Below, piece by piece: positions 7,959-25,125 of a stretch of DNA of 26,751 nucleotides. The notes under the pieces are model-generated. The model did no database searches. It had not been told where the DNA came from and was given only the letters and a program-made list of their open reading frames with translations. Where the stretch lies: the IMG/VR virus record IMGVR_UViG_3300025277_000122, positions 1-26,751 of that record; one strand, 5' to 3'. Each line of letters starts with the position of its first letter. The first letter of the stretch is position 1. The stretch comes from a virus (taxonomy: Duplodnaviria > Caudoviricetes). The position numbers and the translations under genes are program-made.

Positions 7959-8647
7959 TAGTTATCCTCCTCTTTCTCTTTGAGTTCAATTATTCTTGGA
8001 TACTGATCTATTCGATAACCTTTAGTTAAAAACTCATCTGTCTTTGCATCGACTGTATCAGCAAAAACATATATGACCAGCCTGGGAAACTGCCTGCTCC
8101 TGTGTGCAAGAAACTGTAACCAGTCTCCCGGATTGAATACTGATACGTGTACATTTGTACCATCCTTGAATGTCTTGAGTGCTTCAAAGCAGGCCACATT
8201 AATAAAGACCATCTTCCGTGCATAGGAAAAGATTTCATCTACAACCCAACCAAGATCACTCTCAGGTATGTGTTCCAGAACATCTGTACATATGACTGCA
8301 TCCTTCTTATGAACAGGAAGTTTGGAGTGTTCCTCATAGGCTGGGTCAAAGAGTTGATACTCATCAAGATTCCAGTACTCAGGAAGGGGGCTGTCGATCT
8401 CTTCTGTTATGTCTTTGAAAGTGTCTGTATAAAGATGTCCCTTACCACTACCATAATCCAGTATACTCTTGCATTTATTACGCTCAAGATATCCTTTGAT
8501 TATATCTACAAATTTTAGAAGGCTTCTTCCATTGAACATACCTTCTCCCATAAGATGAAACTCTTCATAGTTTTTTATATAGGATAAATAGTTTTCAGAT
8601 GTATTGTGTCTGCTTGTACTGTCATCAGGTTTGATCATCTCAGGCAT
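7958..8647 (-). CDS. Class I SAM-dependent methyltransferase
   Basis: Motif I ILDYGSGKG; FDPAY; DAVICTDVLEHIP. Confidence 0.85.
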   Translation of the reverse strand: MPEMIKPDDSTSRHNTSENYLSYIKNYEEFHLMGEGMFNGRSLLKFVDIIKGYLERNKCKSILDYGSGKGHLYTDTFKDITEEIDSPLPEYWNLDEYQLFDPAYEEHSKLPVHKKDAVICTDVLEHIPESDLGWVVDEIFSYARKMVFINVACFEALKTFKDGTNVHVSVFNPGDWLQFLAHRSRQFPRLVIYVFADTVDAKTDEFLTKGYRIDQYPRIIELKEKEEDN

Positions 8648-10994
8648 CGTAATACCCCTTGAATGCTGACCGTTTCTCCTGCTGTTCCTTTATCTTCCAC
8701 AGGTCTGCAACCATTGTATCTTCTCCATGAAAGGTAAGAACACCATCAAGACCGGGATCATTGAATATCTTTTCACAATCCTGTGCCATTGCCAGAAGTT
8801 CTCCTGTAGTCCAGTATGATTTGTCCTTTACGTTGACCTGAATATACTTTGGCTTTGGTGTTTCACCACCATCTATATCACCAGTAGTTTCGGTCTTCTC
8901 CTCATCAGTTGGCTCTTCCCTGCAACAGTCAAAACCAAAGAGATGTATCTTCCTGAATCCCATTGTATGCAGAAGACCAATGCTACGCATGGCAGCACAC
9001 GTACCACCTGTAATAAGTGTTGCACCCTTGGGAATACCAAGTTCTTCATTAAGCTTTACCTGCTGGTTCTGTATGGCCACACCCTGATCAGCCTCATCCC
9101 TGAGAGAATCAGTATAGGCGTGCCATCCCCACATACGTGCATCACTATCAATGAGAAAGTTTGTCACGGAAGGATCAGTCATGGAGGCCACAAAGAAGTT
9201 TGTCTCAGGATCAAGATCAGCAAACAGATCTTTACGTACAATATTGTGCGTACTCTTTCCTGTTATGGATCTTGGATCAAGAACAACACATCCCCAAGGT
9301 TTTATGTTGTGTTTCATCAGGGCTGGATATGCATGTTTGACAGTAACAACCTTGCAACCTGGATGCTTCTTGATAAAAGCTTTCAGCTTTTTATAATCTG
9401 TATATGGTCCTGCCGAAACAATAACACCCATTGTGCTGTGAGGTACATGTTTCTGAACCCACCTGTCAGATCCAAGAAGTTTCATGTTGGTCTGGATATT
9501 GTTTTTTATATAATCTTTTGGAACACAGTCTCTGGGATGTACAACAATAGGTACACGTTTCAGATCTTCAGGTACTTCTCCCAGTTCAGAATCATGAAGA
9601 AAGACAACAAGATGTGTGTGTCCACCATCTGCTACCTTGTCCCCGGAAGGCAATACATATTTTCTTGTAACTGATTCCTCATCAAAGGTTGTCCATCCAT
9701 CCTCTGTAGTTTCCTGTGCGTCCACCTTTTTGGTTGGAACCTTGTCAAAGACTTCCTTGACTCCCCGATATTCTTCATCAGGAATACCATCGTCTTCATC
9801 CTTTGTGAAGTAATGATCAGCAACAACAACCGGAACATCCTTCAGAATATCATATTCATGCTGCACTGTCTTCAGACTATTGCCACTTCCAATGAGTGCG
9901 AAGTCGGTATTCTTTACTGTGGTCTTGTCAAGTGTATCTCTGACATTTCCACGGTGAAGTTCAAAGGAAAATTCCTTATCCTTTTCTTTCTTCATATGTT
10001 CTTTAAACTCTTCCAGCCTGTTCCTGACAGCAGCCTCTGTATTGTGGGGCTTGGCATTGAATTCTTCCCTGTCAGTAGCTGCGGTGGCATCCTCAAAGAG
10101 ATCATATCCAGTGTAGTGTACACTATCAGCATTGTCAAATGCAGCCAGAGCCATTTCAATTGCACGTCCAGCATTCCATGTACCAGTTTCAAGAAGTCTT
10201 TTCGGTTTATAGAACCTGATAAGGTCAGCCAGTTGTTTATATCTGTTAGGTAATATGTCTGGAGAAGTCTCTGTTTCCGATAAAGGTATCAATCTGTTAC
10301 CAGATGCATCTCTCAATGCTCTGGCATTTTTGTCCCTGAGATTAACCAGAACAGGAGTGATGTCTTCAATCTCATGAATGTTCATACCATGAGCATTATA
10401 GATTGTAACAAGCCTGCTCAGAATAAATGAACTGCTCCACTCCCGATAGTTCATGAATTCTCCAGATATGTAAGCACCACGCCAATCTCCCATCAGATCA
10501 ACAGCAGTCTGCCTTCCTATGTTGAATGCCATGAAGTAATCATTCTCTGGAAGAGAAACAAAGTCTGCATTCTGGGAGGGTTCAGGAAAATAGTTATCCA
10601 GTGTAGTTGTTCTGATATCCTTCAATGTCAGGGAATGTGGATCAACCCATACCATCCATGATCCTTTGTTTTCAAAGGCGCACTCACTTACGGCAAATAC
10701 TTTTGGTGCAGCAGAAAGAACATCAAGCATATCAGTATATACAACGGCTCCATTTTCAGTTCCATCATGGATCTTGTTCTCTTCCATGAACTTTACATAC
10801 TCTGGAATGCTTTCCATCTTGTGGTACTTGATGTTCTTTGCCTTGGGAAGGGAATAGTTCTTGATATCCAGATTATAATAATAACAGTGGAATTCAAAGT
10901 CAGGATGCCAGTTACCCTTGAACTGCTCCAGAAGTTTGGATGCATTGGCTTTCAGGGCAGCTTCATCAAAGCATGTTACAATTTTATAGTTCAT
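8640..10994 (-). CDS. Three-domain protein: glycosyltransferase-like, SAM methyltransferase and Maf/DUF115 (MptE-like) domains
   Basis: Likely start MNYKIVTCF at 10994. GT-A-like N-terminus (KVFAV..WMVWVD); LLETGTWNAG methyltransferase motif; C-terminal VIVSAGP, VVLDPR, GGTCAAMRSIGLLHTMGFRKIHLFGFDC. Confidence 0.7.
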   Translation of the reverse strand: MNYKIVTCFDEAALKANASKLLEQFKGNWHPDFEFHCYYYNLDIKNYSLPKAKNIKYHKMESIPEYVKFMEENKIHDGTENGAVVYTDMLDVLSAAPKVFAVSECAFENKGSWMVWVDPHSLTLKDIRTTTLDNYFPEPSQNADFVSLPENDYFMAFNIGRQTAVDLMGDWRGAYISGEFMNYREWSSSFILSRLVTIYNAHGMNIHEIEDITPVLVNLRDKNARALRDASGNRLIPLSETETSPDILPNRYKQLADLIRFYKPKRLLETGTWNAGRAIEMALAAFDNADSVHYTGYDLFEDATAATDREEFNAKPHNTEAAVRNRLEEFKEHMKKEKDKEFSFELHRGNVRDTLDKTTVKNTDFALIGSGNSLKTVQHEYDILKDVPVVVADHYFTKDEDDGIPDEEYRGVKEVFDKVPTKKVDAQETTEDGWTTFDEESVTRKYVLPSGDKVADGGHTHLVVFLHDSELGEVPEDLKRVPIVVHPRDCVPKDYIKNNIQTNMKLLGSDRWVQKHVPHSTMGVIVSAGPYTDYKKLKAFIKKHPGCKVVTVKHAYPALMKHNIKPWGCVVLDPRSITGKSTHNIVRKDLFADLDPETNFFVASMTDPSVTNFLIDSDARMWGWHAYTDSLRDEADQGVAIQNQQVKLNEELGIPKGATLITGGTCAAMRSIGLLHTMGFRKIHLFGFDCCREEPTDEEKTETTGDIDGGETPKPKYIQVNVKDKSYWTTGELLAMAQDCEKIFNDPGLDGVLTFHGEDTMVADLWKIKEQQEKRSAFKGYYDA

Positions 10995-11784
10995 AAGGTT
11001 GGATCTTTCCATGTCCTGCAAGGTAAGTGTAATCTCCATTCCATTCTGATGCATACTGACCATCAATACTTCTCTTGCATTTCCAGGCCTTGAACCAGGG
11101 TCCACCTGTAGTGAAGTGTACGTTCTTTGCTTTCAGTTCTGGATCAGAGTGACCATCAAGCCAGTTCCATTCCTCATCTATGGTTCCTATGTCAGAATCT
11201 TTTTCTGGCAACCATTCAAAACCATGCAGCCATGATCCAGGCCGATGATTAACATCATGAACTGTCAGCTTTTTGTTAAGATCATGACCACAGTTCCAGA
11301 GCATAAGGCTTGACCAGTTCTTTCTTCGATAGTTTTCCTGTTTCTTTCCATCCATTTTCAGACCATCACCCGGAGCATAGTCATGCTTGACACAATAGAG
11401 AGGATAGTAATCCATGTTATACTCTTCAAAGAGTTCATTGATATCTGTTCGAAGATACATATCACAATCCATATACAAGGCCCATCCCTGATACATATTC
11501 AGGGCAGGAACAAGGAACCTTGTGAAGCTGAACTCACTGGAGAATGGACGGCCATCTATCTGATCTATGTACTGACCATCAACAACGTCATACTTCCTGT
11601 TATATATTCCCATTCGTTCCACAACATCACGACGAAGAGGAACAATACGTACATTGTCTACTGCTATCCTTTCTATTGTAAACTTTAAAACTTCATAGGC
11701 TACATCTTCCTTTGGATCATAGCCTATATAAACTGTATTGGGTTGTTTCTTCATGACCTTATACTCAATGTATCTCTCCTTCAT
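10984..11784 (-). CDS. Glycosyltransferase (GT-A fold, GT8/CDI-like)
   Basis: VYIGYDPKE, SEFSFTRFLVP, DxD motif (MDCD), RKNWSSLMLWNCGH, EWNWL, HFTTGGPW; alternative start at 11754. Confidence 0.85.
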   Translation of the reverse strand: MKERYIEYKVMKKQPNTVYIGYDPKEDVAYEVLKFTIERIAVDNVRIVPLRRDVVERMGIYNRKYDVVDGQYIDQIDGRPFSSEFSFTRFLVPALNMYQGWALYMDCDMYLRTDINELFEEYNMDYYPLYCVKHDYAPGDGLKMDGKKQENYRRKNWSSLMLWNCGHDLNKKLTVHDVNHRPGSWLHGFEWLPEKDSDIGTIDEEWNWLDGHSDPELKAKNVHFTTGGPWFKAWKCKRSIDGQYASEWNGDYTYLAGHGKIQPYEL

Positions 11785-18586: not shown

Positions 18587-18886
18587 TTACCAACCCATCA
18601 TGGCTCTTGTTTCTTCTGGTACTGAATCAACTGTAAACGGTGGTTCAAATGTAGTTATAACATTAACAATTCGTACATTATCAACTAATCCTGCTTGGCG
18701 AATATTGCTAATAATTTCATCCGCAAAGGGACAGAAAGCAGACGTAAGGGTATGTGTAATATCTACACTATATTCAGCGGTACAGGTTTCAACATCGTAG
18801 ATCAACCCCAGATCATATACATTTATACTAATCTCAGGATCAAATACCTCTCTTAGATTAGCAATTATGTGGTCTTTATCGATCAT
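18587..18886 (-). CDS. DUF59 / SufT / MIP18-family Fe-S assembly protein
   Basis: LREVFDPEISINVYDLGLIY, TLTSAFCP and FEPP, giving the DPE-T-CP signature. Confidence 0.9.
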   Translation of the reverse strand: MIDKDHIIANLREVFDPEISINVYDLGLIYDVETCTAEYSVDITHTLTSAFCPFADEIISNIRQAGLVDNVRIVNVITTFEPPFTVDSVPEETRAMMGW

Positions 18887-19536
18887 TGGGTTAAACTTTC
18901 CTCTTCCAACTGTTTATAAAATTCACCTACTGTAATAATTTGTTTAGGTGTTGCTGATGTTTTAATACAATTTGCTAACCAACTAATCCAAATAACATTG
19001 CCTCTTACGTATCCTCCTGATGGGTCTATTCTATCAACAGATGGTGACAATCTCCAATCCGAATCATATCCCGCTTTCATTTCTACATTTAATGCAGGAC
19101 ACTTACCATCTTCAGGATAAATACTTTGTAAATACTTTCCATCCAGATCATAGAGTATTTTGTTTTTTCTGGATTTAATTTTTAATTTACTTGCTCTTTC
19201 TCCAAAATACCTATACACCTCAGTAGTTGGTTTGGCTCTGCTCTTATCATATTCTTTTTGATACTCTGTTAGACGCTCTTTATTTTTTTGATAATATTCT
19301 TTCATATACTCTGCTTTACGCTCTTTATTTTTCTGTTTATATTCTTTATCATACTCTGCTATACGCTCTTTATTTTTCTGTTTATATTCTTTATCATACT
19401 CTGCTATACGCTCTTTATTTTCCTTTCTATATTCTTTACCACACTCTGCTATACGCTCTTTATTTTTCTGTCTATATTCTTTTAGACGCTCTTTATTTTT
19501 TTGATAATATTCTTTCTGGTATTCCGCTCTAGACAT
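18883..19536 (-). CDS. HNH-like endonuclease with N-terminal 15-aa tandem repeats
   Basis: CPAL, SPSVDRIDPSGGYVRGNVIWISWLAN..K; repeats of KEYxQKNKERIAEYx. Confidence 0.75.
   Translation of the reverse strand: MSRAEYQKEYYQKNKERLKEYRQKNKERIAECGKEYRKENKERIAEYDKEYKQKNKERIAEYDKEYKQKNKERKAEYMKEYYQKNKERLTEYQKEYDKSRAKPTTEVYRYFGERASKLKIKSRKNKILYDLDGKYLQSIYPEDGKCPALNVEMKAGYDSDWRLSPSVDRIDPSGGYVRGNVIWISWLANCIKTSATPKQIITVGEFYKQLEEESLTQ
19247..19520. repeat. 45-nt coding tandem repeat, about 6 units
   Basis: Unit atactctgctatacgctctttatttttctgtttatattctttatc at 19261, 19306, 19351, 19396 and 19441, plus a shortened unit. Confidence 0.92.
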
Positions 19537-21170
19537 CAGTCAGTATCTTCCAGAAAGGGGTTGTCGATCTGTGTCATACGACCCGTATCTTTATTGTAGT
19601 GCAGGTAGCAAGCTACTCCTGTGTCTCCAGTGTATCTGTTCTTTAATATCCTAACCGTAGTTGTGTTGGCTTCTATCTCATCGTCTGCCTGCTGGTTTCT
19701 TTCAAGGGCTATGACACTATCAGAGAGATGTGCGATACTTGCTGAACCTCTAAGATGTGAGAGCGATACTTCCTTGCCATCCTCATGTCCTCTGTCACCT
19801 GATGGTCTGCGTAGGTGGGAGACAAGCATAAGACCTATACCTGTTTCCTCCACCAGTGATCGAAGCTTGGTCATAAGAATGTCAATAGACTTACGCTCAT
19901 CACCGTTGTCTTCCTGTCCACTGACAAGAATACTGAGGTGGTCAAGGATTACCCACTTGCAGTCAAGAGCCTTTGCCATGTACCGTACACGATCAAGAAT
20001 CTCATCGTTGTTGATCGATCCAAAATGATCAAAGGCAAAGAACCTCCCGCTGTCTACTGTCTTGTTCTGCCAATCTCTTAGCTGCTCGTCACTAAACTTC
20101 TTTCGTATCTCCCTGATGTACAACCTGGCATCAGCTTCAACTGACATGATATTGAATGCAGTATTCTTTACGTTCTCCTCCATTGCAAGGACACCTATGT
20201 TGTCCTCTGTGCTGCGAAGGATGTGGTGCATAAGCTCCCGCATTGCGGATGACTTGCCCATCCCTGCACCACTGGTGAAGCAGACAAGCTCACCTGTCCT
20301 CATGCCATAGGTCTTTTCATTAAGCTTCGGCCACGGATACAGACACGTCTCGCTGTACGTTTCTTCATAGAGACTTTCACCAAGGTCGGCAAGATTTATT
20401 ATACCTGCTGGTGTATAAGTCTTTGCATTCCACCAGGCTTGAGTAAACTTCTCACGTTGTCCCATCTTGAGATACTCATTGGCATCCTTGTGTTCAAGAT
20501 TTATTATCTTGCATTTGTTTGGTTCGAATAACCTAGCCACCTCCGTAGCTGCTGCCTTACCTGCTGCATCATTGTCAAAACACAGAACAATATTTTCAAA
20601 CCTGTTAAGATATTCAAGCGACTGCTTGCAATTCTTGAGCGCACCTGTAGCACCATTCTTGATGGATACTGAAGCATACTTGGAACCAAGAAGCTGGAAG
20701 GCACTCATGGCATCTATCTCACCCTCACAAACTGTGATGTACTTTCCAGGCTGATTGAACATGTGTTCACCAAACAGACCACACTGACCGAGAGTACCCT
20801 CAGACCAGAAGTCTTTGGTTTGTGTCTTGCGATACTTGTTGGCAAGATTGTTTCCATCCCCATCATAGTAAGGATACCTGTGTTCCGTAATGGTCTGGTT
20901 CTGTCTGGCGACCATGACACCATATCTTTTACAGGTATCCAGTGTTATCTTTCGGTCGGGTATGTCAGACCACACATAAGAATTGTCAGAGATGTTTCTG
21001 GTCTGGATTGGAACTACAGTGTTTTGGGTTGCCATTTTATCTCCGGGTATAACGGTGTTACATTTGTGACAGTATTCATGCCCATCATCATACAATGCAT
21101 TGGCATTGCTTGACCCACATTTTTTGCAGGGTATATGTTTTATAAAAGTATTATCTAAATATTTTACCAT
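19536..21170 (-). CDS. T7 gp4-like DNA primase-helicase
   Basis: Zn finger CKKC...CHKC, TOPRIM CEGEID and FDND, Walker A SGAGMGKS, ILDHL, LRGS, KNRYTG. Confidence 0.95.
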   Translation of the reverse strand: MVKYLDNTFIKHIPCKKCGSSNANALYDDGHEYCHKCNTVIPGDKMATQNTVVPIQTRNISDNSYVWSDIPDRKITLDTCKRYGVMVARQNQTITEHRYPYYDGDGNNLANKYRKTQTKDFWSEGTLGQCGLFGEHMFNQPGKYITVCEGEIDAMSAFQLLGSKYASVSIKNGATGALKNCKQSLEYLNRFENIVLCFDNDAAGKAAATEVARLFEPNKCKIINLEHKDANEYLKMGQREKFTQAWWNAKTYTPAGIINLADLGESLYEETYSETCLYPWPKLNEKTYGMRTGELVCFTSGAGMGKSSAMRELMHHILRSTEDNIGVLAMEENVKNTAFNIMSVEADARLYIREIRKKFSDEQLRDWQNKTVDSGRFFAFDHFGSINNDEILDRVRYMAKALDCKWVILDHLSILVSGQEDNGDERKSIDILMTKLRSLVEETGIGLMLVSHLRRPSGDRGHEDGKEVSLSHLRGSASIAHLSDSVIALERNQQADDEIEANTTTVRILKNRYTGDTGVACYLHYNKDTGRMTQIDNPFLEDTD

Positions 21171-23370: not shown

Positions 23371-23391
23371 TATTTTTCTCCACTTTTGGGT

Positions 23392-23514
23392 TAGGAAGGG
23401 GGGGAATTGAACCCCCCATTAGGTAGCTGTACCTACCTTGCTGCATTGTACAGACCTCCAGCACAACTACTTGTACCTTCGCAGGTTTACAGCATTCATT
23501 CACCAGACTTCCCA
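23392..23514 (-). ncRNA. tRNA-like structured RNA with pseudoknot, copy 1
   Basis: Intergenic. Acceptor-like stem UGGGAAG/CUUCCUA, T-arm GGGGGG-UUCAAUU-CCCCCC, stem GCUGUA/UGCAGC and arm AGGUAG-GUACAG-CUACCU; covaries with copy 2. Confidence 0.8.
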
Positions 23515-23621
23515 TAATGTTTATTTATTAGCTCCACTTCTAGGTCGTTTCATAGATGTCGAGGCGTGGTACTCCGAGATATTGAATTGAAAAATATCCC
23601 GAAGTTGTTTCATGACCACAC

Positions 23622-24711: not shown

Positions 24712-24842
24712 TGGAAGGGGGAGGAGTCGAACCTCCCGTTAGATGTCTGTACCCACCTCGCTGCATTTTGCATAGTACAGACCTCTAGCACAATTTCTCA
24801 TGCCGTCTCAGGCTTGCAGCGTTCACTCTACCGGACCTTCCA
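24712..24842 (-). ncRNA. tRNA-like structured RNA with pseudoknot, copy 2
   Basis: Intergenic. UGGAAGG/CCUUCCA, T-arm GGGAGG-UUCGACU-CCUCCC, GCUGCA/UGCAGC and arm AGGUG-GGUACAGA-CAUCU. Confidence 0.8.
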
Positions 24843-24847
24843 CATTT

Positions 24848-25003
24848 TTAAACTTCTCCAATCTCAGGTTTAATATTCTTTTTCTTATTGGGTATTACTT
24901 TACTACGAAACAGACGTGATGTCAAGACCTTTCCATATGGGTTTCTTTTTATTCCATATCTACGGTGTTGCTTCCCCATCCTGCCTTTCTTTTTTCTTCC
25001 CAT
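24848..25003 (-). CDS. 51-aa basic protein resembling alternative ribosome-rescue factor ArfA (not in ORF track)
   Basis: Strong GAGGAGG RBS; MGRKKKGRMGKQHRRYGIKRNPYGKVLTSRLFRSKVIPNKKKNIKPEIGEV; QH....IK.N.....L...LFR..V..NKK pattern. Confidence 0.6.
   Translation of the reverse strand: MGRKKKGRMGKQHRRYGIKRNPYGKVLTSRLFRSKVIPNKKKNIKPEIGEV
24897..24925 (-). promoter_or_regulatory. Sigma70-type promoter upstream of RNA copy 2, inside the ArfA-like ORF
   Basis: TTGACA-17 nt-TAAAGT. Confidence 0.55.
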
Positions 25004-25125
25004 TTTTCCTCCTCCTCAACATAATTCTTGTATGCTTCATGTCTGTTGAGAACAGACCACCACCAGGATGGCATTACCTCATAGCGGAGCCGCTGTTCCT
25101 GTTCCCATTCATACTTGGTCAGCAT
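24949..25125 (-). CDS. Hypothetical 58-aa protein (not in ORF track)
   Basis: MLTKYEWEQEQRLRYEVMPSWWW...; AAGGA RBS; starts right after the MTase stop. Confidence 0.5.
   Translation of the reverse strand: MLTKYEWEQEQRLRYEVMPSWWWSVLNRHEAYKNYVEEEEKWEEKRKAGWGSNTVDME

Follow-up and report, generated by a model that had tools for sequence, protein, structure and literature searches.

Do a small basic gene and the tRNA-like RNA that directly follows it in the genome of a marine phage (Caudoviricetes) act as one ribosome-rescue module, or are they neighbours with separate histories? The question arises at positions 24,712 to 25,003 of a 26,751-nucleotide stretch of virus DNA (positions 1 to 26,751 of IMG/VR record IMGVR_UViG_3300025277_000122, hereafter the window). 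An earlier note, made from the letters alone, had described there a 51-amino-acid (aa) open reading frame (ORF) resembling the ribosome-rescue protein ArfA and an RNA resembling the tRNA-like domain (TLD) of transfer-messenger RNA (tmRNA), and had joined them into a single candidate module. We find that the ORF is a real gene, that its product is, by sequence comparison, a distant relative of ArfA, and that gene and RNA are two separately inherited cassettes.

A short ArfA-like gene and its relatives

The ORF is very basic (18 lysines and arginines against two acidic residues) and is preceded by a Shine-Dalgarno-like tract (Table 1), both as the earlier note had described. Because this tract, GAGGAGGAGG, also codes for the EEEE of an overlapping 58-aa ORF, the ribosome-binding site is by itself no proof of a gene; C-termini like that of the 58-aa ORF, read by eye in upstream DNA, precede the gene in L083, L025, L092 and L093. 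Across 11 close relatives, differences number 488, 290 and 777 at codon positions 1, 2 and 3, single-base codon changes are synonymous in 408 cases and non-synonymous in 232 (pairwise counts, which are not independent), and the other two frames of the same strand carry stops in most of these sequences. With changes thus concentrated at third positions and the alternative frames closed, the ORF is conserved at the codon level and under purifying selection. It ends in an ordinary TAA, no hairpin spans its 3′ end, and its stop lies 6 nt from the first paired G of the RNA (5 nt counting the U before G1), which bears out the adjacency originally noticed.

Kinship with ArfA is likewise upheld. Aligned without gaps, the protein is identical to E. 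coli ArfA 5-34 at 13 of 30 positions, and the GKGSY segment is missing, as stated at the outset. A Pfam scan returned ArfA (PF03889) as the single match (E = 0.0047); at 16.8 bits, the score lies under the Pfam cut-off of 25.5 bits. Searched singly, the protein gave no phmmer match in the PDB, no tblastn match in phage isolates and one near-identical match in a word-index protein search. Profiles built from 18 phage relatives and from 103 family sequences each matched E. coli ArfA chains exclusively in the PDB (6 of 6 matches in both cases, best E = 4.4e-5 and 1.5e-4, respectively). From these profile matches and the gapless alignment, we infer that the protein is a true, distant ArfA relative sharing ancestry with the core at residues 5-34.

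Much of what ArfA uses to engage RF2 is retained. L19, L24 and F25 of E. coli ArfA touch Trp319 of RF2, with residues 25-29 pairing to an RF2 sheet (PMC5378476; here and below, PMC numbers stand for excerpts of the articles cited). The gapless alignment places V26, L31 and F32 of the window protein at ArfA positions 19, 24 and 25, preserving the RF2-facing hydrophobic patch, and the R-x-x-V-x-x-N-K-K strand (ArfA 25-34) is kept as well. Among 103 aligned relatives, N14, L20, F/Y25, K33 and K34 are found in 94, 101, 99, 99 and 99 sequences. AlphaFold predicts a helix at residues 22-27 and a turn at 30-32, with a predicted local distance difference test score (pLDDT) of about 90 there. Complex predictions with E. 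coli RF2 115-365 scored 0.23 and 0.16 against a mark of 0.32, with controls not folded, and are not used as evidence.

The surrounding protein family is large and extends to DUF7230 (PF23876). The 18-relative profile gathered 547 clusters at E ≤ 0.001; among its first 60 matches scanned at E ≤ 0.05, 20 match DUF7230 (two of the 60 over cut-off) and two match ArfA, and because of these proportions DUF7230 and window-type proteins look like short ArfA relatives. DUF7230 is also matched by 4 of the 18 relatives; its profile found no match in the window protein itself. Family tails vary freely: after NKK, GxG occurs in 0 of the 150 top matches and YxR in 58, and in the window both segments are replaced by KNIKPEIGEV. 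IMG annotation labels some relatives ArfA, and among the unnamed clusters found in the ESM Atlas is one in which 12% of members have DUF7230 (a lead only). Our literature search returned no description of DUF7230 and, in the papers found, no tested phage ArfA-like gene. Pelagiphage HTVC027P gp30, published as a highly expressed ArfA (PMC12753301), belongs to this short-ArfA family (NPVAK, Lys18, GRGSF tail). Since it joins Lys18 to a GRGSF tail, the view that Lys18 is necessarily inactivating is weakened.

In the KPE-tail subfamily, to which the window protein belongs, stops mostly overlap the next ATG and are ordinary, without a hairpin, and in most relatives no RNA follows the gene; given these stops, the subfamily is not gated in the manner of arfA. 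By itself the gene is no great news, since such genes are common in phages and one is already published. Whether ArfA can do without Ala18, the tunnel tail or non-stop gating is a question for which the subfamily provides a natural test. Elsewhere, an unannotated ArfA-like ORF overlaps the end of gp33 in HTVC104P (L146:8846-8986), and another, at L003:2980-3175, has its stop at the loop of a roughly 32-bp hairpin, with two tRNAs upstream, suggesting arfA-like non-stop gating in another phage. In L133-L138, L140 and L142-L144, ArfA-like ORFs seem to sit, out of frame, within longer ORFs that are acidic and by eye scaffold-like, possibly through overprinting or as a frame artefact of Glu-rich sequence.

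The tRNA-like RNA and its family

The RNA abutting the gene (copy 2) consists of a 6-bp acceptor, a stemless D-like loop with GG, a P2 arm with an inner three-way junction, a P5 hairpin, an AAC linker, a 6-bp T stem and a 7-nt T loop. Pattern scans of IMG/VR and metagenomes gathered 48 distinct variants, some pattern matches (L192, L204 and L214 among them) having been set aside as non-members ahead of the count. In 31 aligned members, 99.7% of the 1209 cells of a 39-pair structure are paired and 16 pairs have changed on both sides; none of 500 shuffles scored as high and slid controls reached 38-56%, although relatedness can inflate such figures. The branch has a 6/6 register, since none of the 31 members pairs position 7 with 66 and the sixth T-stem pair covaries (GC 18, AU 13). 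The D-like loop carries an invariant GG (31/31) and UGAA with no conserved D stem, the discriminator is A in 30 of 31 members, and CCA is encoded in three.

In every one of the 41 members caught by script, the P5 loop can pair over six bases, without a mismatch, with a segment of the P2 arm (0.42 members expected). These pairs are of the types CUGUAC/GUACAG (33), UGUGAG/CUCACA (5), CUAUAC/GUAUAG (2) and UUUAAG/CUUAAA (1). Matching loops were found by eye in members missed by the script (L187, L190, L201 and L203, with 5 bp in L212), and the count leaves out one member with a long insert in P5 (the upstream copy of L197/L035). A minimum-free-energy fold with a nested CUGUAC/GUACAG stem and a GCUGCA/UGCAGC pseudoknot was rejected, since covariation supports P2 and P5 as stems. 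Family members measure 90-223 nt; the shortest, L193 and L205 at 90-91 nt, amount to a bare kissing shell of two hairpins, a fold predicted for L193 with z = −4.6. Aligned pairs and matching loops together argue for a covariation-supported RNA family with a predicted P2-P5 loop pairing.

This RNA is more novel than the protein, being absent from Rfam 15, missed by ARAGORN and built on a 6/6 branch. ARAGORN reported 0 genes in the window, with no tRNA or tmRNA call; its calls on L193 and L212, two minimal members, were doubtful. An Rfam 15 scan gave no tmRNA match; the sole match, snoZ163 (E = 0.85), was dismissed as chance. Searched by blastn against phage isolates, the RNA returned T-arm fragments only. 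Exact-pattern scans of GTDB gave 11 and 6 matches, none fitting the RNA profile or model, which is not proof of absence from cells. No description of the RNA appeared in a literature search whose reach excluded subscription papers and the older T4 work. In a catalogue of 10,006 candidate viral RNAs (PMC10690425), the supplements other than files 1-2 gave no match to five motifs and five contig identifiers, and the RNA may be listed in those two files.

Among known classes, the TLD likeness drawn in the earlier note holds for the tRNA shape and stemless D-like loop and breaks down over G3-U70, the 7/5 branch and tmRNA calls. The third acceptor pair (3-70) is AU in 19 members, GC in 11 and GU in one of 31; with G3-U70 in 1/31, a 6/6 rather than 7/5 branch, no ARAGORN or Rfam tmRNA match and minimal members of 90-91 nt, identity as tmRNA was rejected. 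A canonical tRNA was set aside for want of a cloverleaf with D stem and 7-nt anticodon loop, and a bacterial Y RNA (YrlA) because Rfam gave no match and no Ro60 domain was found among the 36 window ORFs scanned, in a record that is 46% complete.

Several further observations concern RNAs of this kind. The shell accommodates varied inserts in the D-like loop, P2 or P5 (L035:1300-1471, L092:2033-2177, L014, L057, L068, L074, L115; also L183, L184, L196, L200, L203), which may be separate functional modules. Tandem copies occur in L035 and two copies in L092, and real tRNAs often follow directly (Leu in L055/L100, Tyr in L009/L072/L104, Trp in L187). Just upstream of the RNA in L183, L196, L200, L203 and L205 stands a second conserved element (…CCCGAAUGG…GCUGAA…GUGGACUGA…) that may be another structured RNA. 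L024, L028, L043 and L045 carry a tRNA-like element whose irregular anticodon loop ARAGORN cannot assign, with a conserved structured stretch before it and a tRNA-Arg after. In the window, a second RNA (copy 1) is flanked by two 8-nt CTCCACTT repeats, which read AAGTGGAG on the minus strand and are RBS-like (resembling a ribosome-binding site); a related-strain contig (run X1) skips 23387-23540, the whole copy-1 cassette between them. Expression was looked at in contigs only, from five runs (three with a 0.05 share), with ORF and copy 2 uncovered; a 151-nt contig from RNA run X2 covers 23388-23538 at depth 2 and gives no evidence on expression either way.

Linkage, proposed roles and rival explanations

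The linked module proposed for this locus is not supported by the distribution of its two parts. The ORF lies directly upstream of the RNA in two of the 48 variants, both from the window's own close lineage, and anywhere in the fetched flanks in 14 of 48, at 40-1340 nt on either side (39 variants were scorable, with at least 1.4 kb on each side or an ORF match). Three RNA-bearing records are at least 90% complete and one has the gene; in the others, G002 (95% complete) and G003 (90%), even a filter-free search found no ArfA-like ORF. Conversely, none of 13 records picked because of an ArfA-like ORF or as the nearest isolate has the RNA, and G022 lacks it. In all, the model recognised no RNA in HTVC104P, HTVC027P and CRP-13, the last having a weak, unverified protein match, or in 12 IMG/VR records that carry ArfA-like ORFs, of which one is complete and most are fragments. 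Gene and RNA are thus separate cassettes, and their adjacency in the window is likely a matter of gene order where small genes have been shuffled.

What might each do? We tentatively favour, at a little under an even chance, an ungated short ArfA-type rescue protein alongside a tRNA-shaped, non-decoding decoy RNA. The protein would bind the empty A site of non-stop ribosomes, where its RF2-facing patch (V/L/F at 19/24/25) and R-x-x-V-x-x-N-K-K strand could dock and recruit RF2 during host mRNA decay; RF2 would then free the ribosomes without the bacterial gating by non-stop mRNA. Because the tunnel tail is short and neutral, binding may be weaker or may rely on the basic N-terminal extension. 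RNase P and the CCA-adding enzyme would be able to mature the RNA thanks to its 12-bp acceptor/T helix, its T loop, the GG of the D-like loop and the discriminator A. With the anticodon-position arm folded against the variable arm by the kissing pair, no usable anticodon would be left. Host proteins such as tRNA-cutting defence nucleases or SmpB would then meet the elbow and acceptor end of a tRNA on a molecule that would not decode mRNA. A broader version, which we regard as possible though rather doubtful, makes the RNA a class of phage 'anticodon-locked' tRNA mimics, defined by the 6/6 branch, two kissing arms and swappable inserts, with T4 RNA C as a distant member. These would be processed decoys, with a tail-less ArfA relative as frequent companion that keeps ribosomes cycling when tRNA supply or trans-translation is disturbed.

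Several points weigh against the rescue-and-decoy reading. At ArfA Ala18 the window protein has Lys (K25), and the 103 relatives have K in 76, R in 12 and A in three; in E. coli, A18T abolishes RF2 activation, binding and RF2 recruitment persisting while release is lost (PMC8012679, PMC5378476). Relative to ArfA, the protein stops at residue 44, and what follows NKK carries a net charge of 0 (family median +2); ArfA cut after Met40 gives no release, 47 residues being required (PMC5378476). Judged by sequence, it is not a canonical ArfA as to Pfam cut-off, residue 18, a GKGSYxR tail reaching residue 47 or non-stop gating. The Lys at Ala18, the lack of GKGSYxR, the end at 44 with a neutral tail and the ordinary stop together make canonical rescue activity uncertain. 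On the RNA side, one sequence type accounts for 33 of the 41 kissing pairs, and action as a decoy is proposed by analogy; phage tRNAs are known to counter tRNA-cutting defences (PMC11555353). Finally, all 14 co-occurring ORFs lie on the RNA's strand within 1.4 kb, closer than random placement; shared ancestry and gene order explain this in related phages compared without tree correction, a loose functional link being possible as well.

The Lys at position 18 could also mark an altered, inactive ArfA that binds the decoding centre and perhaps RF2, cannot open RF2, and leaves non-stop ribosomes plugged or parked or is a competitor of tmRNA-SmpB. We consider this unlikely: the prevalence of Lys18, the A18T precedent (PMC8012679) and the short neutral tail with no GxG after KK in the top matches are consistent with it, but an Ala one place earlier (position 17) in 100 of 103 relatives may do the packing, gp30 of HTVC027P combines Lys18 with an intact tail, the long hairpin over the L003 stop fits a working rescue factor, and a weak tail would make a poor plug. 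It is quite improbable that the protein has left ribosome rescue to become a general basic nucleic-acid-binding peptide, like DUF7230, its ArfA match recording only ancestry. The excess of DUF7230 over ArfA matches among the 60 relatives scanned and the freely varying tails point that way, yet the conserved positions are those with which ArfA contacts the ribosome and RF2, and some relatives bear the ArfA label in IMG.

That protein and RNA form one module disabling trans-translation, with the RNA titrating SmpB like the TLD-only RNA of mycobacteriophage DS6A (PMC4131195) and the protein offering tag-free rescue instead, strikes us as very unlikely. The stemless D-like GG loop, T arm and discriminator A, the phage precedent and the gene within 1.4 kb on the same strand in 14 of 48 variants suit it; the rarity of abutting pairs (2/48), the gene-free G002 and G003, the lack of the RNA in HTVC104P, HTVC027P and G022, the single G3-U70 among 31 members and the 6/6 branch do not, and on general knowledge P5 and the kissing pair would fill SmpB's space on tmRNA. 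Slimmest of all is the prospect that the RNA is a cis-acting processing or stabilising element for an RNase P cut of an early polycistron, the 6-nt tail being trimmed to yield a non-stop ArfA-like mRNA with arfA-like gating. The stop 6 nt before G1 and the location of the RNAs between small genes and tRNAs would accord with this, but a cut at G1 leaves the stop intact, the RNA is absent after the gene in most relatives, and an invariant pseudoknot with modular inserts exceeds the needs of a cleavage signal.

Genomic setting and comparison with known systems

Table 1. Features of the gene and RNA locus in the window (coordinates of the whole stretch).
Feature	Position	Strand	Remarks
Short ArfA-like gene, 51 aa	24848..25003	-	'KPE-tail' subfamily, ArfA/DUF7230 group; residues 12-41 match ArfA 5-34
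Shine-Dalgarno-like GAGGAGGAGG	25008..25017	-	purine-rich; 4 nt before ATG; also encodes EEEE of upstream ORF
58-aa upstream ORF	24949..25125	-	overlaps first 55 nt of ArfA-like gene
sigma70-like site TTGACA-17-TAAAGT	24897..24925	-	inside ORF, ~55 nt before RNA copy 2; weak
tRNA-like RNA copy 2, 130 nt	24712..24841	-	G1 to discriminator A; no encoded CCA
CUGUAC in P2 (anticodon-position) arm	24775..24780	-	predicted pseudoknot strand
GUACAG, loop of P5 (variable-arm-position) hairpin	24747..24752	-	predicted partner of CUGUAC
T arm GGGAGG-UUCGACU-CCUCCC, 6 bp	24719..24737	-	T stem/loop of copy 2
tRNA-like RNA copy 1, 122 nt	23392..23513	-	same architecture; no ArfA-like ORF beside it
Copy-1 cassette	23378..23539	-	flanked by two 8-nt CTCCACTT repeats (23378, 23532)

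The window record (41% GC) carries on its minus strand, by Pfam, a methylase, a cell-wall hydrolase, ThyX, a primase-helicase, a family A polymerase and a ribonucleotide reductase; gene and RNA sit among small genes upstream of the replication genes. The polymerase is nearest to those of pelagiphages HTVC104P/103P/115P (46% identity), which does not settle the host, because HTVC104P has 29% GC (first 30 kb). Sigma70-like sites numbered 13, against 9.6 ± 3.5 in shuffles. Elsewhere in the window, about eight repeats of 45-nt period (19197-19560) fall within a 217-aa ORF (18883-19536) without a Pfam match, and an 821-aa ORF with an MptE-like domain (8640-11105) and a 99-aa ORF with an Fe-S cluster assembly domain (18587-18886) are possible auxiliary metabolic genes.

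Compared with E. coli ArfA (YhdL; PF03889; PDB 5MDV, 5MGP, 5U4I, 5H5U, 7OJ0), the window protein has the same core 5-34, RF2 patch, NKK and predicted place of the short helix; it differs in Lys for Ala18, the lack of GKGSYxRK, its end at residue 44 with a neutral KPEIGEV tail and a basic N-terminal extension, and its gene has an ordinary stop without a hairpin. With HTVC027P gp30 and DUF7230 (PF23876) it shares the NPxAKxL..PxF/Y..V/I..KK core, whereas gp30 retains a GRGSF tail and comes from a genome in which the RNA model finds nothing.

The RNA matters more than the gene, since its loop-loop pair is strongly supported and its natural 90-nt forms suit structure work. With the TLD of tmRNA, including the already known TLD-only RNA of DS6A (PMC4131195), it has in common the stemless D-like GG loop, T arm, G1-C72 and discriminator A, but it lacks G3-U70 and has a 6/6 branch, an extra P5 hairpin and the kissing pair. 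Non-canonical 8/4 and 9/3 tRNAs, some of them in phages (Mukai et al., PMC5389517, where the branch types named in the excerpt are 7/5, 8/4, 9/3, 8/5 and 9/4), likewise combine a 12-bp acceptor branch with a shifted junction, but in the present RNA the junction has moved the opposite way (6/6), and both a D stem and a free anticodon loop are missing.

The remaining comparison is with T4 RNA C (rnaC, species 1 RNA), whose function is stated as unknown in excerpts of PMC3014915 and PMC9697503. In the T4 genome our RNA model R1 has a single match, rnaC, which is weak (19.5 bits; E = 0.016, a rough value, the score coming partly from the T arm) and stands above the real T4 tRNAs (best 16.3 bits). 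Located among tRNAs, rnaC has a GUAG-6nt-CUAC hairpin, UAAC before the T arm and a loop, CGUCAA, complementary to UUGACG in its long 5′ arm; both motifs are invariant in five of five aligned relatives, one with a wholly diverged arm. The 3′ part of an rnaC relative in phage PG7 (L220:449-543) is annotated as tRNA-Met, and similar tRNA-Lys labels on other rnaC matches suggest mis-annotation. The literature search, with the reach given above, found no kissing pair described in rnaC. The two RNAs share tRNA-like ends and complementary loops on two inner arms; rnaC differs in its 7/5 branch, two U-U mismatches and loops without covariation. Because of these differences and the weak score, we take the likeness as shared architecture rather than as demonstrated homology. 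To judge from its complementary loops, rnaC likely locks its anticodon-position arm against the variable-arm loop as the RNA family is predicted to do, and the pairing of UUGACG with CGUCAA is a concrete and cheap prediction that would open a long-standing question on T4 RNA C.
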